DNA of 64,000 nt from Minisyncoccota bacterium (GTDB taxonomy: Bacteria > Patescibacteriota > Minisyncoccia > Phycocordibacterales > SBAW01): assembly GCA_035549255.1 (NCBI GenBank), contig DASZRD010000007.1, forward strand, positions 65,104 through 129,103, given 5' to 3'. Below, in pieces: positions 1 through 44,733 of this stretch (positions are counted from its first letter, which is position 1; every line of letters starts with the position of its first letter). The notes below the pieces were generated by a model. That model did not search any database. It saw only the letters and a program-made list of their open reading frames with translations, and was not told the DNA's origin. The translations under genes and the position numbers were made by a program.

Positions 1-353
1 ACCGCGAAGCCGGCCAGCGCCGCGGCGAGAGACAGCGCCGGCACATAGAGGCCGAAGACTATCCCGCCCGCGAGGCCCAGCACGAGCGCGTAGGCCGCAG
101 CACTCTCGCGCGAGACCTTGCCTGTCACGGTCGCGCGGTCCTTCGTGCGCGCCATGCGCGCGTCGATCTCGCGGTCGTAGATATTATTGAGCACGCACGC
201 GCTCCCGACGACGAGCGAGAGGCCGATGAGCATCGCGAGGAATACGAGCCAGTCGATATGGCCCTTGGCAGCAAAGAAGAACCCCGCGGCCGCGACAAGC
301 GCATTGCCGTAGATAATCCCCGGTTTAGTCAGCTCGTAATAGGCCTTAATCAT
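1..353 (-). CDS. cyoE: protoheme IX farnesyltransferase (heme O synthase), N-terminal part; runs off the window edge
   Basis: Minus-strand translation from an ATG overlapping the cyoD stop gives MIKAYYELTKPGIIYGNALVAAAGFFFAAKG...NNIYDREIDARMARTKDRA, typical of UbiA-family CyoE/CtaB. It sits last in the cyoABCDE order. Confidence 0.8.
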   Translation of the reverse strand, partial: MIKAYYELTKPGIIYGNALVAAAGFFFAAKGHIDWLVFLAMLIGLSLVVGSACVLNNIYDREIDARMARTKDRATVTGKVSRESAAAYALVLGLAGGIVFGLYVPALSLAAALAGFA

Positions 354-718
354 CAATCGTTCTCCGCCTGCGGCGTGATCGTGCCGCCAATGTACGTCTG
401 ATTGATGGAATCGTCCATCTGCATATTGGCGCTCAAGTTCTGCATGATCCAAAGCGTGCCACCGACCAATATGCAGACGACGATGAGCGCCAAAAAGAGC
501 GACGGCAGGTTGGAGCGATTGTCCTTCTCTCCCACATGGAGGAAGAAGATGAGCTGCACGGCAAGCTGTATTAGTGCGAAGATCGCAAATGCTATACCAA
601 GTTCAAGATGCGTCGGGAATCGGTGGTGGTTGTAGACATGGAGCCAGAGTAAAGCCGGCGCCGCGACGGTGAGCAGCACACACAGGATATATCCGATGAT
701 GTATGAGCGCAGAGTCAT
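353..718 (-). CDS. cyoD: cytochrome o ubiquinol oxidase subunit IV
   Basis: 121 aa with three TM helices, and matches the CyoD family. Its start overlaps the cyoC stop (ATGA). Confidence 0.85.
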   Translation of the reverse strand: MTLRSYIIGYILCVLLTVAAPALLWLHVYNHHRFPTHLELGIAFAIFALIQLAVQLIFFLHVGEKDNRSNLPSLFLALIVVCILVGGTLWIMQNLSANMQMDDSINQTYIGGTITPQAEND

Positions 719-1278
719 AACGCGGCGAAGAGGTACACGATCGTAAAGATGAATATCCAGATGAGGTCGAGGAAGTGCCAGAAGAGCGCCAGGCAGGTCA
801 ATTTGCGGTTGGTACTTTCGTTAAGCCCGCGCACGGCGACGTGCGCCATGACGACCAGCATCCAGACAGTGCCGAAGAGGACGTGGAGCCCGTGCGTGCC
901 GACGAGCGTGAAGAAGGATGACAACGCGGCGGAGGCGTTAGGGCCGTTATTTTCATATATGAGTTTGCCGAACTCGGATACTTCCATCCCGAGGAACGAG
1001 AACCCGAGGGCGAGCGTCGCCGCCAGGAATGCAAGCGTGAGCAGCCGATTATTCGCGCGCGCGAAGAGGAGCGAGAGGCCGATGGTGAGGCTCGAGGTTA
1101 AAAGGAGCATCGTTTCGGTGAGTACAAACGGGATATCAAGAAAGTCCCCTACCCCTGCGGCGCCGAAGGTGGCGCCGCGCAGCACCGCAAAGGTGGCGAA
1201 GAGGCCTGCGAAGAGGACGCAATCGCTCATGAGGTAGAGCCAGAAGCCGAAGGTTACTTTTGGAGTTTCTGCGTTCAT
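715..1278 (-). CDS. cyoC: cytochrome o ubiquinol oxidase subunit III
   Basis: 187 aa polytopic membrane protein with clear similarity to heme-copper oxidase subunit III (CyoC). Overlaps cyoB and cyoD. Confidence 0.9.
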
Positions 1279-3230
1279 GACTGTTTATAGGACGCTTCGA
1301 TGCGTGCCACCTCGCTGGAGGGGATCACATGCTCGATATGAGTACTCAGCGAGCGCGCAATAATGATAGCGATAATAATCGGCAGCGAAATCCCCGCAAG
1401 CCACCAAATGTGCCAGATCATAGCGAAGCCGAATGCTCCTGCGACGACGGCGATGACGAACCCGAGCGGCGTGTCGGTCGGCATGTGGATGTCTTCATAG
1501 GAGCCCTTCTGGAAAGATGTTCCTTCTTTTTTCATAATCCAGAACGCATCGCGGCCCGCCACCTGCGGAATATGCGCGAAGTTGTACGGCGGCGGGGGCG
1601 AGTGCGTCGCCCACTCGAGCGTGCGGCCATTCCACGGGTCGCCGCCCGCCGCGAGGCGCTCGCGATTGCGGATGCTCACGATCAGCTGGATGACCTGGAA
1701 GAGCACCCCGAGCCCGATGATGCAGGCACCGAGCGCGGCAACCACGAGCAAGGGGTGCCAGCCCATGGAGGGGTCGATCGTGTCGAGGCGGCGCGTCATG
1801 CCCATGATGCCGAGCGCGTAAAGCGGCATGAAGGCCGTGAGGAAGCCGATCACCCACGCCCAGAACGCGCGCTTGCCCCACGCTTCGTCGAGCCTGAAGC
1901 CCGCGAACTTGGGGAACCAGTACGAGATTCCCGCGAAGAAGCCGAAGAGCACGCCGCCGATCACCATGTTATGGAAGTGCGCCACGAGGAACTCGCTGTT
2001 GTGGAGCTCGAAGTCGGCGCCCGGCACCGCCATGAGCACGCCGGTCATGCCGCCGATGATGAAGGTCGAGATGAACCCCATGAACCAGAGCATCGGGGTC
2101 GAGAAGATGATCCTTCCCCGGAACATCGTGAAGAGCCAGTTGAATACCTTGACACCCGTCGGGATCGCGATCACCATCGTCATGATGCCGAAGAAAGCGT
2201 TTACGTCCGCACCCGCGCCCATAGTGAAGAAGTGGTGCACCCATACGACAAAGGAGAAGAAGACGATGCACATCGTCGCGATGACCATCGAGGTATAGCC
2301 GAAGAGCCGCTTTTGCGAGAATACGGGCACGAGCTCGGAGAAGAGGCCGAAGGCGGGCAGTATCAATATATAGACCTCCGGGTGGCCCCAGGCCCAGATG
2401 AGGTTGACGTACATCATGACGTTGCCGCCGAGGTCGGTCGTAAAGAAGTGCATGCCGAGCAGGCGGTCGAGGCTGAGCTCGCCGAGGGTCACCGTAAGGA
2501 TCGGGAATGCGAACACGACGAGGAGCATGGAGCCCAGAGCGGTCCAGACGAATATCGGCATCTGCATGAGCTTCATCCCCGGCGCGCGCATCTTGAGGAT
2601 GGTCGTGATGAAATTGATCCCGGCCATGAGCGTACCCGCGCCCGCGATCTGGAGCGCCCAGATCCAGTAATCGACGCCGACTCCCGGGCTGTATTGCAGC
2701 TCCGAGAGCGGCGGATATGCGAGCCAGCCGGTCGCGGCGAACTCCCCTGCCACGAGCGAGAAATTGATGAGCATCGCGGCAGCGGCCGTGAGCCAGAAGG
2801 AAACCGAGTTGAGGAATGGGAAGGCCACGTCGCGCGCGCCGATCTGGAGCGGCACCACGAGGTTGAGAAGGCCGAACATCATCGGCATCGCGACGAAGAA
2901 GATCATGATGACGCCATGCGCGGTGAATATCTGCGCGTAATGGTCGGCCGCGAGATAGCCGGTGCCGGGGCCCATACTGATGGCCTGCTGCGCGCGCATC
3001 ATCGCCGCGTCGGCGCCGCCCCGGAAGAGCATGATGAACGCAAGCACGAGGTACATGATACCGATCTTCTTGGCGTCGACGGTGACGATCCACTCGCGAT
3101 AGAGCTTCCCCCACGCCTTGAAGTACGTAATGAGGAGCACGGCGAAGACTCCGCCGCCGACCACCATAAGCTCGGGGATGGTCTCGATCGGCCCGTGTAT
3201 GAAAGATTGAAACGTCAGTAAGCCAAACAT
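1275..3230 (-). CDS. cyoB: cytochrome o ubiquinol oxidase subunit I
   Basis: 651 aa heme-copper oxidase subunit I with the motifs ...[14 protein letters not shown]... and HFHNMVIGG. Confidence 0.93.
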
Positions 3231-3231
3231 A

Positions 3232-4086
3232 TTACATGCGCATGCCGGGCATCGAGCTCATGTCTGTCCCCGGCACGCTCGGGGGCGACATGAATTGCAT
3301 AAGTATTTTATCGTACAGATCGTCGGCCACGCTTGCGTAGGAAAACGGTGCATCGATAGTACCAGGCTGCGCCAGAGATTGATAAGTCGGATAATTGAGC
3401 GCCATGACTCCTTCCTTGGTTTGGGCCACCCACGAGTCGAAGTCGCCCTGCGGCACGGCCGTGGCCTTGAAGCCCATCGAAGCGAAGCCGTCGCCGCTAT
3501 AGTTGGACGAATAGCCGCTATAGGTGCCCGGCGAGGACGCCATAAGGTTAAGCGTCGTTACCATGCCGCTCATGGCATAGATCTGCCCGCCCAATTGCGG
3601 GATCCAAAACGAGTTCATCGGCGCGTCGGCGGTGACCTTGAAGGTGATTGGGGTACCGACCGGGATCGTAAGGCCGCCCACTGTGGCAATCCCCTGCTCA
3701 GGGTAGATAAAGAGCCACTTCCACGGCAGCGCTACCACCTCGATCGTCATGCCCGGCGTATCGGAGGCGATGGGGTTGGGCGGGTTGAGCTCGTGAGTGC
3801 TCGTCCACGTGAGCGCCGCAAGCACCAGCACGATCTCGAGCGGTATCGCCCACCAGACAAGCTCGTCCATCTTGGAGTGCTCCCACTCGGGCATGTACTT
3901 CGCAGACGTGTTGCTCGCGCGGTATTTCCACGCAAAGAAAAAGATAAGGATGTAGACCGGCACCGCCACAATGAGCATAAGCTCAATCGTGTGGAGCATC
4001 AGCCCGCGCTCCGCTGTCCCGATAGGGCCCTGAGGATTGAGCATTACGAAAGTACCGGGCCAGTTCATGCTTTCATCATACCGCAT
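3232..4086 (-). CDS. cyoA: cytochrome o ubiquinol oxidase subunit II
   Basis: 284 aa with N-terminal TM helices plus a periplasmic cupredoxin-like domain lacking the CuA ligands, as in quinol oxidases. First gene of the operon. Confidence 0.88.
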
Positions 4087-4089
4087 CTC

Positions 4090-4125
4090 GGATAAAAAAG
4101 CCGTCCCTCCGAAGAGAGACGACTT
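4090..4125 (-). terminator. hairpin plus T-tract downstream of the HD hydrolase gene, immediately upstream of cyoA
   Basis: Minus-strand sequence AAGTCGTCTCTCTTCGGAGGGACGGCTTTTTTAT: a stem with one mismatch followed by a U-run. Confidence 0.4.
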
Positions 4126-4131: not shown

Positions 4132-4701
4132 TTAGACAGCAGATTTCGGATAGATCCGATCCGCAGCCTTATAGGCCTTGCAGAACTCGACGTAGAGAAC
4201 CGGGCTCGCATCTTTGCATTCCTCGGCAATAAGCCGGGCCCCGTCGATGTAGTCGCGGCACTTCTGTGGCGTCCAGTCGACCGGAGGATCACTGGTGACC
4301 GACCGAACGTTCGAAGTCTGATCGGCAAGCTTCACCAGCTTGACGCTTTTATCTTTGTGAACGACACGCTGTGCTTGGAGCGTCTTACGCTCCAGTGTCG
4401 GCATGCCTGTGAAGTGCGGCGGGTCGGTGAGACCGTCAACCGTGTGCGCAACCTCCGCACCGAAGATCACTCTTATTTCCTCAAGAGTCGTCGAGGTATC
4501 TTCGACCGTATCGTGCAGCCACGCCGCCGCGATCTCCCATGGTGTACCGCCTGCCGCTTCAACAAGATCGGCCACATCTTTCAGATGAGTCCAGTAAGGA
4601 TCTTGTGCCTTGTTGGGCCGTTTGAGGCCTTCATGCGCCTTCTTAGCAAATTCGCGTGCAGCGGCGACCATCTCTTCTGCTTGCGACTGTTGTCCTCGCA
4701 T
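4132..4701 (-). CDS. HD-domain (p)ppGpp hydrolase-like protein (small alarmone hydrolase-like, HD_4)
   Basis: 189 aa with the motif HLKDVA...AAWLHDTVEDT...EEIRVIFGAEVAHTVDGLT, typical of the RelA/SpoT hydrolase HD domain. An AGGAGAA RBS sits 5 nt upstream of the ATG. Confidence 0.7.
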   Translation of the reverse strand: MRGQQSQAEEMVAAAREFAKKAHEGLKRPNKAQDPYWTHLKDVADLVEAAGGTPWEIAAAWLHDTVEDTSTTLEEIRVIFGAEVAHTVDGLTDPPHFTGMPTLERKTLQAQRVVHKDKSVKLVKLADQTSNVRSVTSDPPVDWTPQKCRDYIDGARLIAEECKDASPVLYVEFCKAYKAADRIYPKSAV

Positions 4702-4912
4702 TGAGGTTCTCCTGTGGTTGGTGTCCGATATTAAAATAGCACACTTTTATAGAAAAGTAAAAACTTATCGTTTTCGTGGCTACGACTCAAAATCTGCAGA
4801 TTTCCTGTCTTTTGTGGACCTGGCGAGAATCGGACTCGCGACTCGGCAATGCGAATGCCGCGTAATACCACTTTACTACAGGCCCTTGTCCAAAATTCCG
4901 TGACGGCCGGAG

Positions 4913-4983
4913 TCGGGGTGCCGAGAATCGAACTCGGATCTTACGCACCCGAAGCGTACATAATACCATTATACGACACCCCG
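4913..4983 (-). tRNA. tRNA-Pro (anticodon CGG)
   Basis: Perfect acceptor stem (CGGGGTG/CACCCCG), anticodon stem-loop (TACGC-TTCGGGT-GCGTA) and T arm (CCGAG-TTCGATT-CTCGG). The D-arm is atypical and AT-rich. No encoded CCA. Both flanks extend the acceptor stem by another 8 bp. Confidence 0.6.
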
Positions 4984-5346
4984 ACTCCGGCAACCACGAA
5001 AATCTTTGCTACTATAGCCCGAAAAATAAAAGAGGTCGAGCACGCTAATGCTCAACCTCATGGCGCTGGGAGAGTCTCAGGAGACTCTCAATTCGGGGGA
5101 TGTTGGTTGCTTGGGAATGCGCTTGCGGTCGGGCGGGCGCCTCAATGCCTCATCAAAGGCCCGCTGGCTCGAGCAATCAGGATCTTCGCAGATCCACTTC
5201 GCTCCAACAGGTATCCGTACTCTTCCACAATCGCACAGCCAGTGTTTTCTTTCCGACACGGTTCTTTCTCCGCATTTGCCAATCCGCCCCGTGCGCATTG
5301 GCTGTACAAAACTATACTCCAAAAAATATTTTTGTCGACTAGGATG

Positions 5347-5420
5347 TGCACCCTGGAAGGCTCGAACTCCCGACCTCGCCCGTGTGAAGGGCGCGCTCTA
5401 ACCAACTGAGCTAAGGGTGC
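5347..5420 (-). tRNA. tRNA-Val (anticodon CAC)
   Basis: Hand-folded cloverleaf: acceptor GCACCCT/AGGGTGC, D-stem GCTC/GAGC, anticodon loop TTCACAC, T-loop TTCGAGC. No encoded CCA. Confidence 0.8.
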
Positions 5421-5503
5421 CTTGGCCCGCCAAGGCGGACGTGCGCCCATACTACCGCACCTTCAGGTTTATTTCACGCAGGAAGTAGACTATTATTTAG
5501 TAT

Positions 5504-6013
5504 ATGCGCGGACAAACAAGCACGATCGTTGCAGTCATTATCATCATTATCCTTGTTCTCTTTGGCGCGTGGTGGATCTTCCTGGGCCCCGGCTCCTCGC
5601 CTTCAGTGCCGAGCGCCGCGGGCAATGCCGCGGATGAGGCCGCCGTGCGGCAGACAGTGACGAGCTTCGGCTCTCAGCTCCAGATGGTGTCGCTCATGGC
5701 AAGCACGAGCATCGTTGCCGATGCCATCGGCCAGTATTATGGCCCGTATGTCGACCCGACCTTGCTGCAGAGTTGGGAGGCCGACCCTACCAGCGCCCCG
5801 GGGCGAGAGACTTCGAGCCCGTGGCCCGACCATATCGACATCACCTCGCTCGTGAATAACCCCGACGGCAGCTACACCGTGCAGGGCAGCGTCGCCGAGG
5901 AGGCGAACGGCGCCCAAGGCACCACCACGGTCGACTCTTACCCTGTCTCCATGAATGTTGAGAACAGCGGCGGCGTGTGGCTGATCTCGAGCTATGCGCG
6001 CACGGATCAGTAA
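5504..6013 (+). CDS. hypothetical N-terminally membrane-anchored secreted protein
   Basis: 169 aa. An Ile/Val-rich TM helix (TIVAVIIIIILVLFGAWWIF) is followed by a Ser/Ala-rich linker. The N-terminus is paralogous to the ORF at 26957. Confidence 0.5.
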   Translation: MRGQTSTIVAVIIIIILVLFGAWWIFLGPGSSPSVPSAAGNAADEAAVRQTVTSFGSQLQMVSLMASTSIVADAIGQYYGPYVDPTLLQSWEADPTSAPGRETSSPWPDHIDITSLVNNPDGSYTVQGSVAEEANGAQGTTTVDSYPVSMNVENSGGVWLISSYARTDQ

Positions 6014-6084
6014 GCGGTTGACTTCTCTCGAAGTGAAAGGTTAAATAGCGACGGAAAGTCATTGGCACGCCAGAGGAGGTTCCG

Positions 6085-6717
6085 ATGCCGAATCGCGCTC
6101 CCTTCAACGAAGATGAAAGTCGGGTAGTTCTTGGCGCGCTTGCGCCGTATTACTTCACGACCTTCTATTGCAACGAATACAAGGAGGAGAGCGGCTCCTT
6201 CTTCCAGTTCGCCGGCCTGCCCAGGCTCGCTTTTGGCTCGGTGACTACAGCGCTGGAGGAGCGGGCGCGCGCAAGCGCCGACCAGATACGGATTTACTGC
6301 ATTCCGAGGTCCAGCCAAAGCTACGAGTATTTCGTCATCGCAGCCAACAGCAAGAACTACAGTGGCGAGCTGCTCTACGGCTACGGCGACAATCTCGCGC
6401 TTCCGCTTTCCGACCATATTCTCAAGCGCGCGGAGCTCGAAGCGCTGAAAGCGTGGTCGTGGAGGAGATATATCCGGTCGCAAGGAAAATACCCCTTCCT
6501 CATCTTCCTAGCATGGTCTGCAGTAATCATGTTCTCAGCGGACATGTACCTCACGCATGGAAGCGGCGGATGGGGCGAGTGGCTCTTCGCGGGCATACTC
6601 CTGATCGTGGGTGTCACGGGCCTCTGGGATATCCTGATAACCCAGCCCAAGACTCTTGCCGCCGAAAAAGCCCTGCTCAACAGCGCACTCATCAAGCTCG
6701 CAAAAAGTTCGCCGTAA
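6085..6717 (+). CDS. hypothetical membrane protein (two C-terminal TM helices)
   Basis: 210 aa ORF followed by a terminator hairpin. No recognisable domain. Confidence 0.45.
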   Translation: MPNRAPFNEDESRVVLGALAPYYFTTFYCNEYKEESGSFFQFAGLPRLAFGSVTTALEERARASADQIRIYCIPRSSQSYEYFVIAANSKNYSGELLYGYGDNLALPLSDHILKRAELEALKAWSWRRYIRSQGKYPFLIFLAWSAVIMFSADMYLTHGSGGWGEWLFAGILLIVGVTGLWDILITQPKTLAAEKALLNSALIKLAKSSP

Positions 6718-6721
6718 CGGC

Positions 6722-6757
6722 CGTGCCCTCTCTCTAGAGAGGGGGCGCTTTTCTATA
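6722..6757. terminator. bidirectional hairpin terminator
   Basis: GCCCTCTCTCTAGAGAGGGGGC followed by GCTTTTCTAT, lying between the ORF ending at 6717 and tRNA-Ala. Confidence 0.45.
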
Positions 6758-6760
6758 GTG

Positions 6761-6833
6761 TGGACCCAACCGGGATCGAACCGGTCACCTCCTCATTGCA
6801 AATGAGGCGCTCTACCAAATGAGCTATGGGCCC
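6761..6833 (-). tRNA. tRNA-Ala (anticodon TGC)
   Basis: Acceptor GGGCCCA with the G3:U70 Ala identity pair, anticodon loop TTTGCAA and discriminator A73. No encoded CCA. Confidence 0.85.
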
Positions 6834-6867
6834 AGCCAAAAGTTGCCAAGAACATCTTATTAAAACA

Positions 6868-7203
6868 TTATTTGCTTATTTCGTCTATCTTCGCCGCGAC
6901 GATGAAATCGTTCTCCGAGAGGCCGTCGATCGCGTGCGTGGTGAGCTCGACGCCGACGTCGCCGTAGGAGACGGTCATATCGGGATGATGGCCTTCTTCC
7001 TCGGCGATGGCCGCGACCTTGTTAACAAACTCCATCGTCTTCTTGAAATCCTTGAAGTGGAAGCTGCGCGCCAGTAGATGCCCCTCATCTATGAGCGCCC
7101 ACTCGGGGTTAAGCTCGGGCATGAGCTTCTGCGCCTCGTCATGCGGCATGGGCTTGGTGCCGCCTTCGCACGGCACACACTTTTTCTTGGCGAGATTACT
7201 CAT
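6868..7203 (-). CDS. 4a-hydroxytetrahydrobiopterin (pterin-4a-carbinolamine) dehydratase
   Basis: The sequence MSNLAKKKCVPCEGGTKPM...EGHHPDMTVSYGDVGVELTTH is a clear PCD/DCoH family match. The start was moved to the internal ATG, which overlaps the ddl stop by 8 nt. Confidence 0.8.
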   Translation of the reverse strand: MSNLAKKKCVPCEGGTKPMPHDEAQKLMPELNPEWALIDEGHLLARSFHFKDFKKTMEFVNKVAAIAEEEGHHPDMTVSYGDVGVELTTHAIDGLSENDFIVAAKIDEISK

Positions 7204-9870: not shown

Positions 9871-12558
9871 TTATTTACCTTTGAGTACCTTGCGCAAATA
9901 GTTGCCGGTGTGCGAGGTCTTATGATTCGCTACGTCTTCAGGAGTCCCCTTCGCCACGAGCTTGCCGCCGCCTTCGCCGCCTTCGGGACCGAAGTCGAGC
10001 AGCCAGTCGGAGGTCTTTATCACGTCCATATTGTGCTCAATGAGCACAACCGAGTTTCCCGCCGCGACAAGGCGGTTGAGGATTTCAATTAGTTTGCGCA
10101 CGTCTTCATAGTGGAGCCCGACCGTCGGCTCATCGAGAAGATAAATCGTTTTCTGGAGATGCGGCTTATAGAGCTCCGCGCTGATCTTCACACGCTGTGC
10201 CTCGCCGCCCGAGAGCGTCGTCGCCGATTGGCCGAGTTTGAGGTAGCCGAGACCGACTTCGCCGAGCGTGCGCAGGCGGTCGTAGATCGCCGGAATGTCG
10301 TTGAAGAAGTCGAGCGCCTCCTCGACCGACATCTCGAGCACATCGTAGATGCTCTTCTTTTTGTATTTCACTTCGAGCGTCTCCTTCATAAACCGCTTGC
10401 CGTTGCAGACATCGCAGGTCACGTAGACGGTTGGTAAGAAGGCCATCTCGACGGCGATGACGCCGTTGCCCTCGCACGCCTCGCAGCGCCCGCCGCCGCG
10501 CGATTGCGGCACGTTGAAGGAGAAGCGGCTCGACTTCCAGCCGCGTGCCCGCGCCTCGATTGTCTCCGCGAAGAGGTCGCGGATAAAGGTGAAGGCGCCG
10601 GTGTAGGTCGCCGGGTTAGAACGCGGCGTCCGGCCGATCGGCGATTGGTCGATCAATATCGCACGGGAAAGATTCTCGAGCCCCTCGACGCTCGCGGCAT
10701 TGAAGACCCGGTTGGTGCGATAGCGCTTGTCGAAGCGCGCGCGCAGATTTTCGTAGAGGATTTCGTACAGGAAGGTCGACTTCCCCGAGCCCGAGACGCC
10801 GGTGATCGTGACGAGCCGCCCGAGCGGGATATCGACCGAGAGGTTCTCGATATTGAAGGCCTTGCCGCCCTTGATCTTGATCCAACCTTTGTCCTTGCTG
10901 CGCCTTTCGTCCGGCACTTCGATCGCCTTTTCGCCGCGCAGGTATGCGAGCGTGACGCTGCCGCTATCGTTCTTCTTTGCGGTGAGAAGCTTATCAAGCT
11001 CGCCTGCGACGACCACGTGCCCGCCGTGCACGCCCGCGCCCGGGCCGATATCGACGATATAATCACCGGAGTAAATCGTGTCTTCATCGTGCTCGACGAC
11101 GAGGATGGTATTGCCCAAGTCGCGCAGATTAACCAACGTCTTGATAAGGCGCTCATTGTCGCGCTGGTGGAGGCCGATCGTCGGCTCATCGAGCACATAG
11201 AGCGCACCCACGAGGCCGGAGCCAAGCTGCGACGCAAGCCGGATGCGCTGCGCTTCGCCGCCGGAGAGCGTATTGGCACGACGCTCGAGCGTAAGATAGT
11301 CGAGGCCGACGTCGAGCATGAATTTGAGCCGCGCGCAGATCTCCTTGATGACGGTCTTCGAGATCTCCTGATCTTTTTTAGAGAGATGGAGCGCGTTGAA
11401 ATACTCGTACGCGTCGGCGATCGAGAGCGAAGTGATCTCGACGATATTGTAGCGGCCTTCCTTGCGGCGCACGCTGGCCTCAGGTATGGGCTCGTTGGGG
11501 TCTCCGCCTCGGCTCGACGCCGAAGTCGAGACGGGCTTCACCTCCTTCTCAAGGAATACGTTGAGTGCTTCGGGGCGGAGCCTCGCGCCGTGGCACACCG
11601 GGCAGGGCTCCTCGCCCATGAAGTGCTTGGTGCCGAGGCCGTTGCACTCGGGGCACGCGCCGTACGGTGAGTTGAAGGAGAAGAGGCGCGGCTCAACCTC
11701 GGGGAATGAGAACCCGTCGTACGGGCACATGAACTTGGCCGAGATGAGCCGCTCGCCATGAGCGTCTTCAATTTTGACCAAGCCATCCGATGCCTCAAGC
11801 GCGCGCTCGACTGCTTCAGAAAGGCGCTCGAGCGCCGCCGCGGCGCGAGCCTGATTTTTTTGCGCAGGCGCAAAGTCTGTCACTAATATTTCATCGACCA
11901 GTGCGTCGATATCGTGCTTCTTGTATTTAGAAAGAATGACTTGTTCGCGCAGGTTCTTAACCTCGCCGTCGATCTTGGCACGCTCATAGCCCTTGCCGAG
12001 GAGATCATAGAGCAATTGATAGTACTCGCCCTTGCGGCCGACCACGAGCGGCGCATAAATCTTGACCGTATCTTCAGCGATCTCGACGCCCATGACCTTT
12101 TGCGTCTTCTTCGGCGGATGCGAGCCCACATTCTCGACGATGCTACTGATGATCTCTTCGTTGGAGAGCTTCTTGATCTCGCGGCCGCAGATGAGGCAGT
12201 GCGGCTTCCCCACGCGCGCGAAGAGGATGCGCATGTAGTCGTAGATTTCGGTAATGGTTGCCACCGTCGAGCGCGGATTATTGGAGCGCGACTTCTGATC
12301 GATCGAGATCGCGGGGCTCAAGCCCGTGATCTCCTCGACATCCGGCTTCTGCATCTGGCGGAGGAACTGTCGCGCGTAGGCGGAGAGCGATTCTACGTAG
12401 CGCCGCTGGCCCTCGGCGAAGATAGTGTCGAACGCCAAAGACGACTTCCCGCTCCCGGAAAGCCCCGTAAACAAGACCATCTTATTGCGCGGAATGCTCA
12501 ATGAGATGTTCTTGAGATTGTGGGTCTTGGCCCCTTTTATATGAATATAGTCTTCCAT
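9871..12558 (-). CDS. uvrA: excinuclease ABC subunit A
   Basis: Two ABC ATPase modules with zinc-finger insertions. The track ORF runs to 12747, but UvrA homology begins at [20 protein letters not shown], so the start was set at the internal ATG. Confidence 0.92.
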
Positions 12559-12599
12559 GGCAACGCTATAGCCCCACGGATCGCTCCGAGGGGTACCTA

Positions 12600-12640
12600 T
12601 ACACAAGTTTAGTATACCACAGAGGGCACATTCTATAAAA
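12600..12640 (-). promoter_or_regulatory. putative uvrA promoter
   Basis: On the minus strand: TTATAG, 16 nt, then an extended -10 TGGTATACT about 45 nt upstream of the uvrA ATG. Confidence 0.3.
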
Positions 12641-13194
12641 TAAAAGGCCCCCGCAACGTTGCAACGTCGCGAAGGGCCTTGTTCGACCTTACAGATCAGC
12701 ATGATGACGGAGTGTTCCGTCGTTGGACGGTCCTCCCGTCTCAGCATGACCTTTGGAAAGATCGCTGCTCAAAGCGTTGCGCTTCGAGCGTCGTCCACCT
12801 TCACCCTTTCGAGCTATCGTCTGCATCCATCGCTGGACACAAATGACTTTTCAAAAAAATAGAAGCTGTCCGACAGAACAAGATGTGGATTGCGGATGCC
12901 TCCGCTATCCGGATTGGCATTGCGCACTGCCATACCTATCTCATTCCGACCGTATTTGGGGTCATCTTGGATCCTTTTTGATCTCCCTTGCGGGACATCT
13001 GAAGAAAACAAGTCCAAATGGCCTATCGGCTCTCAGTAGAGCATCTCGCATTTCTGCGAAGTGCCCCGTGATGTGGCGTTCGGTATTACTACCTGTGCCG
13101 CGCCGGTAATGTAGGAGTTTACTCTTCCCGTAATGGAGAGCAAGTGAATAACGTATTTGGAAATACTTTTAAAATCTCGCAATATCTCTGGCCA

Positions 13195-15243
13195 TTATTT
13201 TCTGGCCTTTTTTGGTTTCTTTGAGCCACCTTCTCCAGTTAATGTATAGATCTCGTCTCTTATCAGTGCGGCGGTTTCGAAGTCGAGGTTCTTCACGGCT
13301 TCGGCCATGTCTTCGCGCTTCCCCGCGAGGAACTTGCGCGGGTTCTTCTTATACTCCTCCTTTTCTATCGCGATCATCTCGTTGACCGCCTTGCCGTGCT
13401 CGGTGCGGAGTTCCGCGGTGATGTCTTTAATAGCTTTCTTCACGCTCTGCGGCGTAATATTGTGCTCTTTATTGAACTTTGTCTGTATCTCTCGGCGGCG
13501 GTTGGTCTCGTCGACCGCTTTGCGTAGCGAGGGCGTCTCTTCGTCGGCATAGAGTATGACGCGGCCGCCGACGTTGCGCGCGGCGCGGCCGATCGTCTGT
13601 ATGAGCGACGTTTCGGAGCGCAGGAAGCCTTCCTTGTCAGCATCGAGTATGGCGACGAGCTCCACCTCGGGCAGGTCGAGCCCTTCGCGCAAGAGATTGA
13701 CGCCGACCAGCACGTCGTACTCGCCTTTGCGCAAGCTCGTGAGCGTCTCGATGCGCTCGAGCGTCTCTACATCGCTGTGAAGATACGCCGCCTTGTATCC
13801 CCGATCTTTAAGAAATTCTGCAAGATCCTCGGCCATCTTTTTGGTAAGGGTCGTAATAAGCACGCGTGCTCCGTGGTCGATTACCTTGGTCGCCTCCTCA
13901 AGCACGTCCTCCACCTGCCCCTTCTGGTCCATATCGCGGTTGCCGGTCACCGGTCGCACAATGATCTCAGGGTCGACAAGACCCGTCGGGCGGATGATCT
14001 GTTCCACGACATACGAGCCGCTCTTTTCCTTCTCGTAGGGCCCGGGTGTAGCCGACGTATAAATGACTTCTTTGACATCCTTTTCAAATTCCTCGAACTG
14101 GAGCGGGCGATTGTCGACCGCCGACGGCAGGCGGAAGCCGAAGTCGATCAGCGTATCCTTGCGCGCGCGGTCGCCTGCGTACATGCCGCCGATCTGCGGC
14201 ACGGTCACATGGCTCTCGTCGATTACCGTCAGGAAGTCAGGCGTACCGTCGGCCTTGTGCGGGAAATAATCGAGGAGCGTATAGGAAGGTTGGCCCGGCT
14301 TGCGGCCGTCGAAGTGCCGCGAATAATTCTCGATGCCATTGCAGTAGCCGATCTCGCGGATCATGGCGAGGTCGTGGTTAGTGCGGCGCTTGAGGCGCTC
14401 GGCCTCGAGCATCTTGCCCTGGCGGTTGAGGACCTCGAGCCGGTCAGTCAATTCGCTCTTGATGTCTTGGATCGCGCGATCGCGCTCGTCCTCGGGCGTC
14501 ACATAGTGCTTGGCCGGAAAGAGGAAGAGCGATGAAGATGATTCTTTCTCTGCGCGGGTAACGGCATCGATCACCCGTACGCGGCCAATGACATCACCCT
14601 CGAATTCGACACGATAGATAACGCGCTCGCCGGTTGGCATGATTTCAATACTGTTCCCCAGCGCGCGGAATTGCCCGGGCGAGAGGTCACCCGGCGTGCG
14701 CTCGAAGTAGAGCCGGATGAGGTCGCGAATGAGGTCTGCGCGATTGGACTTCACTCCCGCGCCCAGCTCGAGGTGCACCTTACGATACTCCTCCGGGCTC
14801 CCAAGCGAATAGATGCACGAGACCGACGCTACGATGATGACGTCGCGGCGCGTGAGCAACGCCTGGGTCGAGGCATGGCGCAAGCGGTCGATCTCTTCGT
14901 TGATCTGCGCCTCCTTCTCTATATACGTGTCGCTGTGCGGAATGTACGCCTCCGGCTGGTAGTAGTCGTAGTAGGAGACGAAGTAATGCACCGCGTTGTT
15001 GGGGAAAAATTCGCGGTACTCCTGCGCGAGCTGTGCGGCGAGCGTCTTGTTGTGCGCGATCACGAGGGTAGGCTTGTCGAATTGCTCGATCACGTTGGCG
15101 ATCGTGAAAGTCTTCCCCGAACCGGTGACGCCGAGGAGCGTCTGCTGCTCGACCCCGGCATTGATGTTTTTCATCAGCTGCTCGATAGCCTTCGGCTGGT
15201 CCCCTGCCGGCTGGTACTCTGATTTGAGCTTAAACGAAGCCAT
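13195..15243 (-). CDS. uvrB: excinuclease ABC subunit B
   Basis: 682 aa SF2 helicase-like protein containing the motif ...LLGVTGSGKTFTIANVI... and a C-terminal UvrB/UvrC interaction region. Confidence 0.93.
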   Translation of the reverse strand: MASFKLKSEYQPAGDQPKAIEQLMKNINAGVEQQTLLGVTGSGKTFTIANVIEQFDKPTLVIAHNKTLAAQLAQEYREFFPNNAVHYFVSYYDYYQPEAYIPHSDTYIEKEAQINEEIDRLRHASTQALLTRRDVIIVASVSCIYSLGSPEEYRKVHLELGAGVKSNRADLIRDLIRLYFERTPGDLSPGQFRALGNSIEIMPTGERVIYRVEFEGDVIGRVRVIDAVTRAEKESSSSLFLFPAKHYVTPEDERDRAIQDIKSELTDRLEVLNRQGKMLEAERLKRRTNHDLAMIREIGYCNGIENYSRHFDGRKPGQPSYTLLDYFPHKADGTPDFLTVIDESHVTVPQIGGMYAGDRARKDTLIDFGFRLPSAVDNRPLQFEEFEKDVKEVIYTSATPGPYEKEKSGSYVVEQIIRPTGLVDPEIIVRPVTGNRDMDQKGQVEDVLEEATKVIDHGARVLITTLTKKMAEDLAEFLKDRGYKAAYLHSDVETLERIETLTSLRKGEYDVLVGVNLLREGLDLPEVELVAILDADKEGFLRSETSLIQTIGRAARNVGGRVILYADEETPSLRKAVDETNRRREIQTKFNKEHNITPQSVKKAIKDITAELRTEHGKAVNEMIAIEKEEYKKNPRKFLAGKREDMAEAVKNLDFETAALIRDEIYTLTGEGGSKKPKKARK

Positions 15244-15278
15244 GTTATGGACATTCTACCATTTTTGTTATGAAAAAG

Positions 15279-15312
15279 AAAAAGGGCCGCTCGCGCGAGG
15301 CGGCGGCCCAAG
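15279..15312 (-). terminator. terminator downstream of tgt
   Basis: Minus-strand GGGCCGCCGCCTCGCGCGAGCGGCCC followed by TTTTTCTTTTTC. Confidence 0.45.
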
Positions 15313-15387
15313 GCTAGGGAGGAAACGCCCAAGGGGGGCATGCGGCGTCATTGCCGCTTCTTCACTATATGTGCACTTCACGAAAGA

Positions 15388-16605
15388 TCAATGTTTATAA
15401 CCCGCCAAAAACGCATCGCGGAATTTTTCGAAGGTGCCGTCAATGATCGCGTTACGGATGCGGCGCGTGAGGTCGGCGAGGAAATAAAGGTTGTGCTGGC
15501 TTGCAAGGATGGGCCCGAGCATCTCACCCGCGCGGAAGAGGTGATGCAAATAGCTTTTGGTATATCGCGCGCAGACTAGGCATGAGCACTCGGGGTCGAT
15601 CGATGTCTGATCTTCTTTAAATTCGGCGTTGGGAATTTGGATCTTGCCGCGATGCGTGTAGAGCCCGCCCGTGCGGCCGTTGCGGGTCGGCAGCACGCAG
15701 TCGAAGGTGTCGATGCCCGCCGCGGCACCAATAAAGAGATCTTCCGGCTCGCCGATGCCAAGCAAGTGCCGCGGCTTGTCCTTAGGCAGTTCCGCATTAA
15801 CCTTATCGAGGATGCCGAGGAGGTCGTGCTTGCTGAAGGAGCCGCCGATGCCGAAGCCGTCGAAGTCCATCGATGCGATCTCGCGCGCGCTTTCGATGCG
15901 CAGGTCGGCGAAGCGCCCGCCTTGCACGATGCCGTAGATCCCCTGCTTGGCGTTCATATCAATATTCTGTCGATGCGCGCGGAGGCTGCGCTCGGCCCAG
16001 CGGTGCGTGCGGTCCATCGCTTCCTTTTGGTACTCGTACTCGGCATTGGGTGCCGTGCACTCGTCGAAGGCGTAGATAATGTCGGCGCCGAGCGCATGCT
16101 GGATCTCGATCGAGCGCTCGGGCGTAAAGCGATGGAGGCTGCCATCGACATGCGAAGTGAAGGAAACGCCCTCTTCGTCGATCACTGCAAGTTTGCCGTG
16201 GCTTGTCGCCAAGTCCTCGTCGAAGATCGCGACGCCGGACTCGCGCGCGGCCTCTTCGGGCAAAAACTTCGACAACTTTTTCCCGAAGCCGACGCCGAGG
16301 CTGAATACCTGGAAGCCGCCCGAGTCGGTCATCGTGGGCCGCTCCCATGTCATAAACTTCCCTACGCCGCCGCCCTTCTCTACGATCTTCTCGCCTGGGC
16401 TGAGATAGAGATGATAAGTATTCGCAATGATGCCCTGCACCCCGAGATCTGCAAGACGCGCGGCCTCAACGCCTTTCACATCGGCCTTAGTCGCGACCGC
16501 AATAAAGGCGGGCGTCTGTATCTCGCCATGGGGCGTCTTCAAAATCCCGGCTCTCGCGAGAGAGCCGGGAAGTTCCTTCTCGATCGTGTAAGAGATCGGC
16601 CGCAT
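15388..16605 (-). CDS. tgt: queuine tRNA-ribosyltransferase (tRNA-guanine transglycosylase)
   Basis: 405 aa with a TIM-barrel Tgt fold (...LLGIGEPEDLF...) and a C-terminal zinc site (CSCLVCARYTKSYLHHL). Confidence 0.9.
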   Translation of the reverse strand: MRPISYTIEKELPGSLARAGILKTPHGEIQTPAFIAVATKADVKGVEAARLADLGVQGIIANTYHLYLSPGEKIVEKGGGVGKFMTWERPTMTDSGGFQVFSLGVGFGKKLSKFLPEEAARESGVAIFDEDLATSHGKLAVIDEEGVSFTSHVDGSLHRFTPERSIEIQHALGADIIYAFDECTAPNAEYEYQKEAMDRTHRWAERSLRAHRQNIDMNAKQGIYGIVQGGRFADLRIESAREIASMDFDGFGIGGSFSKHDLLGILDKVNAELPKDKPRHLLGIGEPEDLFIGAAAGIDTFDCVLPTRNGRTGGLYTHRGKIQIPNAEFKEDQTSIDPECSCLVCARYTKSYLHHLFRAGEMLGPILASQHNLYFLADLTRRIRNAIIDGTFEKFRDAFLAGYKH

Positions 16606-17084
16606 TATTGCTGCGCTGCCTGCGGCGTGTCTTTGAGAAGAGACACCTCGAAGATGAGCGTCGAGTTGCCGGGGATCGGCCCGTAATCCTGGCTGCCGTA
16701 GCCGAGGCTCGGCGGGATGATCAGCAGGCGCTTGCCACCGACCTTCATACCTTGAAGCCCCTGATCCCAGCCGGGGATCACGTTGCCCGCACCGAGTACG
16801 AAGGTGTACGGCGTCTTGCCGACCGAGGTGTCGAAGACCGTGCCGTCCTCGAGCTTGCCGGTATAATCGACCGTGATCGTGTCGCCCACCTGCGCTATAG
16901 CGCCGGTGCCGACCGTCTCATCCTGCACGACGAGCTGAGTCGCGCTCTCGTCGGGGGTCGTGCTCGACATATCCGAAGAAAGACTCATGCTTCCGAACGG
17001 ATTATTAAATATGAAGAAAAAAATGCCGACGACCGCGAGCGCAATGACGACTGCAATGCCGGTAATGAAGTTTTTCTTGGTCAT
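16605..17084 (-). CDS. FKBP-type peptidyl-prolyl cis-trans isomerase, membrane-anchored
   Basis: N-terminal TM helix plus an FKBP domain (...FVLGAGNVIPGWDQGLQGMKVGGKRLLIIPPSLGYG...). Confidence 0.85.
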   Translation of the reverse strand: MTKKNFITGIAVVIALAVVGIFFFIFNNPFGSMSLSSDMSSTTPDESATQLVVQDETVGTGAIAQVGDTITVDYTGKLEDGTVFDTSVGKTPYTFVLGAGNVIPGWDQGLQGMKVGGKRLLIIPPSLGYGSQDYGPIPGNSTLIFEVSLLKDTPQAAQQ

Positions 17085-17159
17085 ATAGCCACACGATACT
17101 CCCCTCGCGCCCCGCGAGCAACTCTGTTATCCCCGCGGTCGCTATAGTAGTATCAAGCC

Positions 17160-17612
17160 ATGCAGATCCCGCTGATCCAGCAAGAAAAAGACTACTATTG
17201 CGGCCCTGCGATCATTGAAATGATTCTCGGCGCGTACGGCAAGAACATAACTCAGGACGAGGCCGCAAAACGCGCGGGTACGACTGAAGCCGTGGGTACT
17301 TCGATAGCCGGGTTAGCGGGCGTACTTGCGCAAGAAAATTTTTCCGTCGATGCGGCAGAAAATCGCAGCGTTGCAGACATTCAGCAAGCCTTACAAAAAG
17401 GCGCCATTGTTATCGTCAATTATACCGAGCCGGTGTGGGAATGGGGGCACTACGCCATCGCCGAGAAAATAGAGAGCGGCATGATAACACTCATTGACCC
17501 GGATTCCCGCACCGGAAAGACGTCCATGCTGATGGAGGAATTCGAGCGCCGGTGGAAAGACCCGCTGTTTACCAAAGCGACCCGCTGGGCTGCGTTCGTG
17601 TCGGAAAAATAA
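17160..17612 (+). CDS. peptidase C39-like domain protein (standalone)
   Basis: 150 aa with a QQEKDYYCGPA motif resembling the C39 catalytic Q/C motif. No linked ABC transporter. Confidence 0.55.
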   Translation: MQIPLIQQEKDYYCGPAIIEMILGAYGKNITQDEAAKRAGTTEAVGTSIAGLAGVLAQENFSVDAAENRSVADIQQALQKGAIVIVNYTEPVWEWGHYAIAEKIESGMITLIDPDSRTGKTSMLMEEFERRWKDPLFTKATRWAAFVSEK

Positions 17613-18731
17613 TTACTGCCCGACACTTGCGGCGCTGGTCGAGATAAAGCCGCCGCTCGCGGGATACGCGCCGAAGACCGACGCGCTCTGATTGAGGTTT
17701 GTCTTGCCCGCGAAGGGCGTCTGCGCATTGAGGAAGATAAGCGCGATGGCGATCATGGCGACAACCGCGCCGCCAATCAGCATGTCGGTAGGCTGTATCT
17801 GGATATGGATAAAGAACGCGAGCGCGAGGCCGACCATGAGCACCACTGCGACGCCGGCAAGCACCCACTCGATTGAGGATGAGGGCTGCGTGTCGCCGCG
17901 CACCAGCTCACGCGCGAAGGAGCTCCATGGCGTGCTGCTGTGCGGTGAGACAGGTGCTGCAGCCGAGGTTTCTACCGGCGCACTTGGCGCGGCCGTAGTC
18001 GGCTCCGCTTGCGCTTCAGAGGTGTCCGCTGCGGCAGGCTGTGCATCGGTTGATGGCGCAGCTTCAGTCTCCGCGCCAGCCACCTGCGCGCCCGCCGGCG
18101 CCGCTTCTGACGCCGCTACCTGCTGCACGCCGCCGGCAGCCGTAGAAACCGACGAGCCCGCTTGTTTCGGCTCGCCGAAATATTGCACGACGTACGTCGC
18201 CGGCGCGCCCTGGTATATGCCTTGCGCCACACCGACGCCGATCTGCGTGTAGACCGGCTTCACGATATTGGCGCGATGGGTCGGCGACGCCATCCATGCA
18301 TTGACGACGTCGGAGGAGTCCTCAAACCGCACCGCGAGGTTCTCGCCCGCCGCCTGGTATGAATAGCCGTATTCGCTGATCCATGTCCACGGCTCCTTCC
18401 CGTCCGGCCCCACATGCGCGAAGTAGCCCTTCGCCGCCATATCCTCGGCCTTGGCTTGCGCGGCGGCGTCGAGATCGGCGTTTTCGGTCAATTGTCCGAC
18501 ATTATTGGTCGCGCGCTCGTCGTTGGTGAGTGCTATGACCTCGCCGGGCAAGACCGCCGCAACAAAATTAAATGCCGACTGCCGCGCGATAAGGTCAGCG
18601 ACGAACACTGCTTCGGAGGTAAGGACTACCGTGAGGAAAAAGAGGAGCCACGGTCGGCGGAGCATATGCGGGCGGTAGACATTGCGCTTGGAGGGTATGA
18701 AATGGTCCTTCAGTTTGCGCAGGAAATCCAT
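17613..18731 (-). CDS. CAP/SCP (PR-1-like) domain protein, membrane-anchored with an Ala/Pro/Thr-rich linker
   Basis: The sequence ...DLDAAAQAKAEDMAAKGYFAHVGPDGKEPWTW...GENLAVRF...AWMASPTHRANI is a CAP domain. An N-terminal TM helix is present. Confidence 0.75.
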   Translation of the reverse strand: MDFLRKLKDHFIPSKRNVYRPHMLRRPWLLFFLTVVLTSEAVFVADLIARQSAFNFVAAVLPGEVIALTNDERATNNVGQLTENADLDAAAQAKAEDMAAKGYFAHVGPDGKEPWTWISEYGYSYQAAGENLAVRFEDSSDVVNAWMASPTHRANIVKPVYTQIGVGVAQGIYQGAPATYVVQYFGEPKQAGSSVSTAAGGVQQVAASEAAPAGAQVAGAETEAAPSTDAQPAAADTSEAQAEPTTAAPSAPVETSAAAPVSPHSSTPWSSFARELVRGDTQPSSSIEWVLAGVAVVLMVGLALAFFIHIQIQPTDMLIGGAVVAMIAIALIFLNAQTPFAGKTNLNQSASVFGAYPASGGFISTSAASVGQ

Positions 18732-19573: not shown

Positions 19574-20005
19574 TTAGGCGTTTCGTTTTGCCGAGCGCCA
19601 GTGCCAGACGGCAAGGCTAAAGAGGACGAGCGTCGTCAGTGCCGAGATCGCGCAGTACATGCAGTAAGCATGGATCAAAGTACCTTGGATATAGAACTCG
19701 AAGATAAGCGAGAGCGCGAAGCCGATCGCGGTGTAGCCGAGCGTTGCGACGCTGAGCGTGCGCGAGCGCGGGTCCATCGCAAGGAGCACCATGAGCGCAA
19801 GCATATAGACATAGTAGACAAGCCCGATGTACGCGAGCGGCACGCCGAAGAAGTGCGAATACTGGCTCGTGAGCACGACCTCGCAGCCGCCGATGGCGCA
19901 ACTGGGCACCGCGTTGCTGTAAGCGAAGTATGAGAGGTAGAGCGTGTCGGCAAGCCCGACAAACGTGGCGGCAATAAGGTAAAACGGGGTCAGTAATTGC
20001 TTCAT
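19574..20005 (-). CDS. vitamin K epoxide reductase (VKOR) family protein
   Basis: 143 aa with four TM helices, a CxxC-like AIGGC pair and a CMYC motif, as in VKOR. Confidence 0.7.
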   Translation of the reverse strand: MKQLLTPFYLIAATFVGLADTLYLSYFAYSNAVPSCAIGGCEVVLTSQYSHFFGVPLAYIGLVYYVYMLALMVLLAMDPRSRTLSVATLGYTAIGFALSLIFEFYIQGTLIHAYCMYCAISALTTLVLFSLAVWHWRSAKRNA

Positions 20006-20017: not shown

Positions 20018-20422
20018 TCACTTTCCCCGTTCGCGTTCATCTTCCCGATGGCGCACCTCCGCTTCATCCATGCCGAAGTGATGCGCGACCTCGTGCCAGA
20101 TCGTTTCGCGGATTACCTTGCGTACATTGGCTTCCCCGCCGCCAAATTCCATCGCCTCGTCCTCGATTGGCCATTGATAGAGCGTGATCGTGTCGGGCAA
20201 GACGTTGCCGACGCCGTAATAATCGCCGCGCGCGGTATGCGGAATGCCGCGATAGAGCCCGAGCAGGGTCTCGTTGTCTGCCAGCCCTTCTTCTCTCCGC
20301 ACTTCTTCCGACGGCTCGTCTTCCACAAGAAAAGCAACGTTCTCTACCTTGGAGCGGAATTTTTCCGGAATAGCGTCAGGAAATTCCTCCGCAACCAGCT
20401 TCTCAAACTCCTCGCGAGTCAT
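20018..20422 (-). CDS. metallopeptidase family protein (zincin-like, HExxH)
   Basis: 134 aa with a WHEVAHHFG motif, like the small bacterial 'metallopeptidase family' proteins. Confidence 0.7.
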   Translation of the reverse strand: MTREEFEKLVAEEFPDAIPEKFRSKVENVAFLVEDEPSEEVRREEGLADNETLLGLYRGIPHTARGDYYGVGNVLPDTITLYQWPIEDEAMEFGGGEANVRKVIRETIWHEVAHHFGMDEAEVRHREDERERGK

Positions 20423-20946
20423 TTGAGCAAATCCTTGAACTTCTCCTGTACCTTCTCTACCTTGGGAGCGATGATGACTTGGCAGTAGCCCGCGTCTTTG
20501 TGATTTTCGTAATACTTCTGGTGATAGTCTTCCGCTTTGTAGAAGTTCTTGAGCGGCGCGACGGTCGTGACGATCGGCTTCGTATATTTCTTCGCGATCA
20601 GTTTGATATAGTGCTCGGCCTTCTCCTTTTGTCGTTCGGTCGTATAAAAAATCGCCGAGTGGTACTGCGGGCCGACATCATTGCCCTGCCGGTTAGGCGT
20701 CGTCGGGTCATGCGTCTCGAAGAATACTTGCAGGATTTCCTCAAACGCCAAAAGGTCCGGATGGTACACGATGCGAATGACTTCGATATGCCCCGTGTCG
20801 CCGCCGCAGACTTGCTCATAGGTCGGGTTCGCTACGTGCCCGCCACTGTAGCCTGGCTCGACTGATACGATCCCCTTGAGCATGGTGAAGACCGCCTCCG
20901 TGCACCAGAAGCACCCTCCGCCCAAGACAATCTCCTCAGTATCCAT
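20419..20946 (-). CDS. msrA: peptide-methionine (S)-S-oxide reductase
   Basis: Contains the GGCFWC active site. The start was set at MDTEEIV because the upstream extension overlaps a terminator hairpin. Confidence 0.9.
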   Translation of the reverse strand: MDTEEIVLGGGCFWCTEAVFTMLKGIVSVEPGYSGGHVANPTYEQVCGGDTGHIEVIRIVYHPDLLAFEEILQVFFETHDPTTPNRQGNDVGPQYHSAIFYTTERQKEKAEHYIKLIAKKYTKPIVTTVAPLKNFYKAEDYHQKYYENHKDAGYCQVIIAPKVEKVQEKFKDLLK

Positions 20947-20956
20947 GAGGCAAGTA

Positions 20957-20985
20957 TAGCAAACCCCCGCCTTGGCGGGGGTTTG
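20957..20985 (-). terminator. terminator of the Ig-like protein gene
   Basis: Minus-strand GCAAACCCCCGCC-AAGG-CGGGGGTTTGC followed by TATACTT. Confidence 0.45.
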
Positions 20986-21017
20986 CACTCGCTCAAGAAC
21001 TCACCAATCGCGGATGA

Positions 21018-24029: not shown

Positions 24030-24104
24030 TGCCCGATCGTCTAATGGTAGGACAGCGGCCTTTGAAGCCGTTAATTGGGGTTCGAATCCCTGTCGGGCAG
24101 CCAG
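24030..24104 (+). tRNA. tRNA-Gln (anticodon TTG), CCA encoded
   Basis: U1:A72, anticodon loop CTTTGAA, T arm TGGGG-TTCGAAT-CCCTG, discriminator G and a terminal CCA. Confidence 0.85.
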
Positions 24105-39866: not shown

Positions 39867-39950
39867 GCCGGGGTGGCGGAATTGGTAGACGCACGGGACT
39901 CAAAATCCCGCGATGGCAACATCATGAGAGTTCGATTCTCTCCCCCGGCA
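39867..39950 (+). tRNA. tRNA-Leu (anticodon CAA)
   Basis: Class II tRNA: GCCGGGGTGGCGGAATTGGTAGACGC..., anticodon loop CTCAAAA, long variable arm. No encoded CCA. Confidence 0.85.
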
Positions 39951-40016
39951 CACATTCTTTATTTTATTCCGGCAACATGTTAGTGTCCGTCTTGGCACAG
40001 TACCAAGGAGGTTCGT

Positions 40017-44544: not shown

Positions 44545-44733
44545 ACCAGCATTGTACGAAGCCGAGAGGCGTACACCAAGGACGTGCTGCGGCCATGGTT
44601 AGTTTAACGAGTCGACAAAGGGATTGACGCCTGATCGAACTCGACTCGTCGTGTGCGCAGCGAGGAAAAGTGACTCAACGACACCTTTCGTTGTTGCGAG
44701 CAAGGCAGGAGAAATTGTCGTTATGGCAAACTG

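Follow-up and report, generated by a model that had tools for sequence, protein, structure and literature searches.

Bacteria of the Candidate Phyla Radiation (CPR) are usually seen as fermentative anaerobes without an electron transport chain. Operons for a cytochrome bo3-type quinol oxidase (cyoABCDE) in reduced CPR genomes with no visible quinone pathway have been known repeatedly since 2015, with published cases from Parcubacteria, Saccharibacteria and Doudnabacteria (Nelson & Stegen 2015, PMC4508563; Beam et al. 2020, PMC7507113; Nicolas et al. 2021, PMC8407418). The 64,000-nt stretch of contig DASZRD010000007.1 analyzed here (hereafter the window) begins with a further instance. It has the same operon and a CyoB of the same clade (67-74% identity) as the published cases, and it shares with them the lack of nearby quinone-biosynthesis genes and the inferred proteobacterial origin. 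The earlier CPR reports already cover operon synteny, CyoB phylogeny and the debate between O2 scavenging and respiration (PMC4508563, PMC7507113, PMC8407418, PMC9938205). As the question is in the literature, the window adds one more example and is not a discovery. What is added here is the clade-wide conservation of the quinol site, the synteny of cyo with the ATP synthase (atp) genes, and the strict linkage of the operon to a companion membrane-protein gene that we call X184.

We assign a probability of about 0.6 to the reading that the operon encodes a functional bo3-type ubiquinol oxidase together with CyoE, resident in a Paceibacterota genome after an old acquisition, supplied with scavenged quinol and pumping protons. 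Electrons would pass to Cyo from a quinol, most likely ubiquinol, which is probably not made by the cell and may be scavenged from a host or neighbour. Cyo would reduce O2 to water and pump protons, both lowering local O2 and feeding the proton-motive force for the nearby ATP synthase. A minimal chain might run from exported protein thiols through a VKOR-family protein to quinone, Cyo and O2, and further quinone-feeding dehydrogenases may lie elsewhere in the genome.

The closest solved system is cytochrome bo3 of Escherichia coli (PDB 1FFT, 6WTI, 7CUB, 8F68), also encoded by cyoABCDE. The window operon has the same gene order, A-B-C-D-E, the same functional residues and a subunit II equally devoid of CuA. 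Identity to the E. coli proteins (from locus L020) is 47% for CyoA, 62% for CyoB, 50% for CyoC, 42% for CyoD and 41% for CyoE. The genes are as follows:

4086..3232, minus strand: cyoA, subunit II; 284 aa by the longest open reading frame (ORF), 270 aa from the NCBI start at 4044
3230..1275, minus strand: cyoB, catalytic subunit I; 651 aa
1278..715, minus strand: cyoC, oxidase subunit III; 187 aa
718..353, minus strand: cyoD, oxidase subunit IV; 121 aa
353..1, minus strand: cyoE, haem O synthase, 5' part; 117 of 229 codons are in the window, and the gene crosses the window start

An earlier reading of the letters alone (the sequence-only reading) had taken all five genes as intact and as coupled by ATGA and TGATG overlaps. 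The first part holds for cyoA to cyoD, which are complete, whereas cyoE is cut by the window edge and is whole (229 aa) only on the source contig (L001 12878-13567). The second part holds for three junctions, with ATGA at cyoB/cyoC and cyoC/cyoD and TGATG at cyoD/cyoE, but the cyoA/cyoB junction reads TAA-T-ATG, a 1-nt spacer with no overlap. The operon also departs from its E. coli counterpart in several ways. The window CyoA has no lipoprotein signal peptide or lipobox, with E. coli residues ~14-24 (including the lipobox) left unaligned, and it has no cysteines. At its C-terminus, CyoE lacks ~65 residues; the operon belongs to a reduced CPR genome in which neither quinone nor haem synthesis can be seen, and it is always followed by the lineage-specific X184.

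Family assignment was based on the TIGRFAM Cyo equivalog cut-offs, which are the curated family thresholds of NCBI. CyoA scored 289.1 bits against TIGR01433 (cut-off 266.2) and also matched Pfam COX2 and COX_ARM, CyoB scored 1036.5 bits against TIGR02843 (1020.35), and CyoC scored 228.8 bits against TIGR02842 (223.75). CyoD, at 76.3 bits, fell just under the cut-off of TIGR02847 (81.45) and passed that of Pfam COX4_pro (32.5 versus 28.9). The 117-aa fragment of CyoE matched Pfam UbiA (1.1e-24) and the NCBIfam heme o synthase model NF003348 (1.4e-38) over model positions 2-117 of 292. The best solved structure for CyoB was that of E. coli bo3 (1FFT/8F68, E about 5e-272). The next best was the aa3-600 menaquinol oxidase QoxABCD of Bacillus subtilis (6KOB/6KOC; E about 1e-201, 56% identity over the core), which is likewise a CuA-less, quinol-oxidising A-type haem-copper oxidase. 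The window proteins, however, fall below the curated Qox and cytochrome c oxidase cut-offs (QoxB, CtaD). A cytochrome c oxidase of the CuA type (aa3) was considered and rejected, as scores for the CoxB and CtaD models stay far under the thresholds and CyoA contains not a single cysteine. Its cupredoxin domain has no Cys-x3-Cys motif and therefore cannot hold a CuA centre, which agrees with the sequence-only reading of CyoA as a subunit of a quinol oxidase.

All 24 functional CyoB positions checked in the window are as in E. coli. They include the low-spin haem b ligands H106 and H421, the high-spin haem o3 ligand H419, the CuB ligands H284, H333 and H334 with the cross-linked Tyr288, the D-channel residues D135, N124, N142 and E286, the K-channel residues K362 and T359, the pair R481 and R482, and the quinol-site residues R71, D75, H98 and Q101. 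Judged from these residues and the family models, the operon is a genuine cytochrome bo3-type ubiquinol:O2 oxidoreductase (A-type haem-copper, CyoABCD) accompanied by a haem O synthase, CyoE.

Conservation extends to the whole CPR clade. Each of 17 functional positions checked clade-wide is kept in 126-127 of 127 CPR CyoB sequences, and the quinol-site residues R71, D75, H98 and Q101 are kept in 127, 127, 126 and 127 of them. Such conservation speaks for selection to maintain genuine quinol oxidation and proton pumping. The residue aligned with Q101 of the E. coli ubiquinol oxidase is Gln in the CPR enzymes too, whereas it is Glu in QoxB of B. subtilis, and the substrate hinted at is a ubiquinol-like quinol. 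That a ubiquinol-type site is invariant across the CPR clade argues for the existence of a real quinol substrate and hints at a ubiquinone-producing partner. CPR genomes of this kind have been reported to lack quinone synthesis, and uptake from a partner has been proposed (PMC4508563, PMC8407418).

The surroundings of the operon recur in other CPR genomes. The common order is uvrA-uvrC-ddl-pterin dehydratase, followed further on by cyoABCD(E), the convergent X184 and an F-type ATP synthase operon. In our contig, the ATP synthase operon (L001 17835-21956) starts about 4.6 kb beyond the window start. Loci L087 (Adlerbacteria) and L088 have the same arrangement as the window; L090 breaks off within uvrC, which leaves uvrA out of view. 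L089 has the same flanks, but the cyo/X184 block between them is turned round, and the block thus behaves like a cassette. At least nine further metagenome loci have atpB less than 7 kb from the cyo/X184 cluster. The proton channels, the quinol site and this recurrent ATP synthase neighbourhood make us lean towards an energy-conserving enzyme.

For the CyoB phylogeny, a neighbour-joining tree of 151 sequences was computed on 494 columns, with 100 bootstraps and B. subtilis QoxB as the root. The CPR sequences nest inside proteobacterial bo3 in 95 of 100 replicates. The sequence-only reading had raised horizontal transfer from Proteobacteria, and the tree fits it; the same origin was concluded by Beam et al. 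2020 (PMC7507113) and Nicolas et al. 2021 (PMC8407418). Composition places the event in the past. The GC (guanine plus cytosine) fraction of the operon is 0.597 against about 0.58 across the window, and in synonymous codon usage, the four cyo genes give correlations with the remaining window genes of r = 0.68-0.96, within the 0.66-0.97 span of the other 44 genes, cyoB being among the highest values in the window. This comparison, also proposed by the sequence-only reading, gives an operon that matches the window average and looks native, which rules out a recent transfer. The data fit an old cyo acquisition from Proteobacteria by an ancestor of this CPR lineage, now fully ameliorated and kept under selection.

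A candidate for the quinol supply lies within the window:

19574-20005, minus strand: VKOR-family thiol:quinone oxidoreductase, 143 aa; Pfam PF07884, 76.3 bits (cut-off 27.5)

In the alignment, its loop Cys pair ('SCAIGGC') and its CxxC active site (CMYC) fall on the catalytic cysteines of the Synechococcus enzyme (4NV2/3KP9), all four being present. The sequence-only reading had seen no other respiratory or quinone-biosynthesis genes in the 64 kb; there is indeed no quinone-biosynthesis gene and no NADH dehydrogenase, but this VKOR had been overlooked. The described models are the chains in which DsbB or VKOR hands electrons to quinone and a quinol oxidase (E. coli DsbA/DsbB; Actinomyces MdbA/VKOR; Synechococcus VKOR, 3KP9), and the window encodes both membrane steps. 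Unlike in these chains, no DsbA/MdbA-like partner was identified in the window, and VKOR does not adjoin cyo. Sixteen of the closest VKOR homologues lie on contigs of 30 kb or longer, and 10 of these have a CyoB or X184 match on the same contig, so that cyo-bearing relatives also carry VKOR. We regard VKOR as a candidate quinol supplier to the oxidase.

Among the CPR cyo loci without X184, some have different quinone-linked enzymes next to the operon. In L019 (Saccharibacteria), an NDH-2-like Pyr_redox_2 protein and a flavin adenine dinucleotide (FAD)-linked, D-lactate dehydrogenase-like oxidase are encoded at 14003-17887. In L016, a cytochrome b561 is encoded beside the operon and next to MsrA (5410-6934). 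The VKOR of the window has as same-strand upstream neighbours a zincin-like protein (20018-20422) and MsrA (20419-20988), and secreted CAP-domain and Ig-like proteins are encoded beside it. We considered a module shared between the MsrA-zincin-VKOR genes of the window and the MsrA/131-aa ORF/cytochrome b561 genes upstream of cyo in L016, and rejected it because the middle genes are not homologous. A UbiE-like methyltransferase (61174-61719, 181 aa) was likewise rejected as a quinone-biosynthesis gene; it is a generic class I methyltransferase with 69.7 bits against the UbiE cut-off of 378.

Several points weigh against the reading of a proton-pumping oxidase run on scavenged quinol. No gene for quinone biosynthesis, NADH dehydrogenase or haem biosynthesis was found in the readable ~80 kb of the contig. 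CyoE has 229 aa against 296 in E. coli, and the syntenic relative L088 has cyoABCD followed directly by X184 (12486-13391), with no cyoE adjoining cyoD; together these make the haem O supply uncertain. VKOR lies 15.5 kb from the cyo operon, and its link to the oxidase is circumstantial and inferred, with no shared operon. It is also widespread in CPR with or without cyo (PMC6744442), which leaves the VKOR-cyo link not specific; cyo itself is reported from only a minority of CPR genomes, VKOR from many (PMC9938205; PMC6744442). The CyoB tree is a simple distance tree, the pattern scan has biased its sampling, and a strictly monophyletic CPR CyoB is weakly supported, with only 29 of 100 bootstraps, so that the robust part is the nesting within proteobacterial bo3 alone. 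Finally, the consensus in PMC9938205 favours detoxification.

This last view, that Cyo serves only to remove O2 in a fermentative anaerobe with no meaningful energy conservation, is the strongest of the competing explanations, and we consider it possible but clearly the less likely one. Quinol oxidation by a bo3-type enzyme is electrogenic even without pumping. The D-channel, the K-channel and E286, which are needed for pumping, are moreover invariant across the 127 CPR sequences, and the operon repeatedly stands beside the F-type ATP synthase operon. In favour of detoxification alone, the readable ~80 kb shows no further respiratory complex, and O2 removal is the usual interpretation of CPR cyo, given the lack of the remaining respiratory chain (PMC9938205; also discussed in PMC4508563). 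The sequence-only reading had likewise described a terminal quinol oxidase that lacks any visible quinone pathway and might scavenge O2. That description matches the literature on such genomes (PMC4508563, PMC8407418, PMC9938205), while pure scavenging is not established. A conserved and seemingly fully competent proton-pumping quinol oxidase bears on how some CPR bacteria endure or profit from O2, and also on what they must take from their hosts, namely quinone, haem and copper.

Much less probable is that the operon is a decaying relic with no function. The short CyoE, the L088 locus without cyoE next to cyoD, and the absence of a visible quinone or haem pathway in the readable ~80 kb would suit a relic. 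However, all frames are open and translationally coupled, and every functional residue checked is retained in the window and, at about 30% overall divergence, by 126-127 of 127 relatives. The short CyoE, which retains what aligns with E. coli residues 1-230 and misses the final ~65, is no one-off truncation either, as ~230 aa is the lineage norm.

Residence of the operon in a CPR genome is supported from several sides. The window CyoB and three further window proteins are identical to proteins of GCA_964442315.1, named 'Candidatus Paceibacterota bacterium' at NCBI, and they are collinear on its contig CAYTYW010000007.1. The window corresponds to positions 40015-104014 of this contig, of which positions 31289-111158 (~80 kb) were readable. 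The best 120 CyoB relatives are 68-74% identical to the window protein, and Paceibacterota, Adlerbacteria and Parcubacteria account for nearly all of those with names. For CyoB, X184 and VKOR alike, the closest homologues that are named come from CPR. We therefore give hardly any credence, and the least among the alternatives, to a proteobacterial fragment brought in by mis-assembly or mis-binning; although CyoB is 60-65% identical to, and nested among, proteobacterial CyoB, the operon is embedded in a 111,824-bp contig and flanked on either side by CPR-type genes, its GC and codon usage match those of its neighbours, its closest named relatives are nearly all CPR, and the same flanking genes recur in independent CPR assemblies. 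Nelson & Stegen ran the same contamination checks for C7867-007, which is our locus L006 (PMC4508563).

Beyond the start of the window, the operon is followed by its companion gene:

L001 13510-14064, minus strand (contig 39181-39735): X184, 184-aa membrane protein, about 280 nt beyond window base 1

The X184 proteins have ~180 aa and five predicted helices, and the gene is convergent with the end of the cyo operon. No match was found in Pfam or NCBIfam. A search among 5.8 billion proteins returned 208 homologues, all named ones being CPR, and a profile search hit only 15 clusters among 1.84 billion representatives. No relatives were detectable outside cyo-bearing CPR loci. The AlphaFold2 model is of moderate confidence (five helices, pLDDT, the predicted local distance difference test, 70.6) and gave no fold match in PDB. 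The invariant or near-invariant residues include R37, H100, H103, W114, W115, N119, N131, P163, Y164 and H167, and a positive-inside estimate places H100, H103 and H167 near the cytoplasmic face.

The linkage of X184 to cyo is strict. Metagenomes of the Joint Genome Institute (JGI) contained 61 X184 loci, and in all 47 with at least 700 nt downstream, cyo genes follow on the opposite strand, cyoE first. The nine loci from other sources also have X184 after the cyo operon on the opposite strand (9/9), next to cyoE in eight and to cyoD in one (L088). Counted together, 56 of 56 loci have X184 and the last cyo gene (cyoE in 55, cyoD in L088) arranged tail-to-tail, and the 3' ends overlap in 36 of 40, by a median of 58 nt. 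All that Nicolas et al. 2021 (PMC8407418) say is that some CPR cyo loci include 'a conserved hypothetical protein'. We found no description of the linkage in the literature, and it may be new. Tentatively, and with still less confidence than we grant to detoxification, cyoABCDE and X184 might form a six-gene transferable unit, in which X184 would be a CPR-specific accessory factor of a haem- and quinone-auxotrophic symbiont running a borrowed oxidase. Its part could then be the uptake or insertion of haem, copper or quinone that the cell scavenges; alternatively, it could be an additional subunit or provide an entry point for electrons. If this were true, X184, VKOR and the adjoining ATP synthase would make up a self-contained minimal aerobic chain, with X184 as a concrete candidate for its 'missing' component.

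On the other side of the operon, upstream of cyoA, two features were annotated:

4098..4125, minus strand: terminator-like hairpin with a 12-bp stem and a T run, from a consensus scan only, between the HD-domain gene and cyoA
4132-4701, minus strand: HD-domain gene, 189 aa, with only the HD hydrolase domain of RelA/SpoT, directly upstream of cyoA

The cyo transcription unit probably has its 5' boundary at the hairpin; no convincing candidate for a sigma-70-type promoter was found upstream of cyoA. The 189-aa HD protein resembles a small alarmone hydrolase, and the window also encodes a 510-aa RelA/SpoT protein (37227-38777, plus strand).

The rest of the window is that of a small CPR genome:

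58385-59842: T4SS_pilin genes
4814-6833, 24030-24103, 39867-39951, 44733-44804, 47038-47122 and 55819-56186: transfer RNA (tRNA) genes, 12 in 64 kb

CPR-type genes flank the operon on both sides of the contig, and many proteins have no family assignment. IF-2 (508 aa), UvrC (427 aa) and DnaX (351 aa by the NCBI call, 393 aa by the longest ORF) are short. With the T4SS_pilin genes and the Paceibacterota metagenome-assembled genome, these short proteins bear out the reduced, CPR-like genome that had been recognized from the letters alone, and the host is a Paceibacterota (CPR) bacterium. Four of the tRNA genes are clustered at 55.8-56.2 kb, and the high overall tRNA density (12 in 64 kb) is consistent with a very small genome.

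Two further observations concern the window at large. The suhB/mmgR small RNA family is known from Alphaproteobacteria. A full-length match to its Rfam model (RF00519) lies at 15270-15346 on the minus strand, with 57.5 bits (gathering threshold 41) and E = 3e-9 for the whole window. It sits between tgt and uvrB. Its parts are a small hairpin, a CCUCCC motif and a terminator stem-loop, and it may be just a terminator look-alike. A P-type ATPase of 791 aa is encoded at 24125-26500 on the plus strand; its best match is the plasma-membrane proton-efflux type IIIA model TIGR01647 (584 bits, cut-off 615), and it could be a second proton-translocating device of this small genome.

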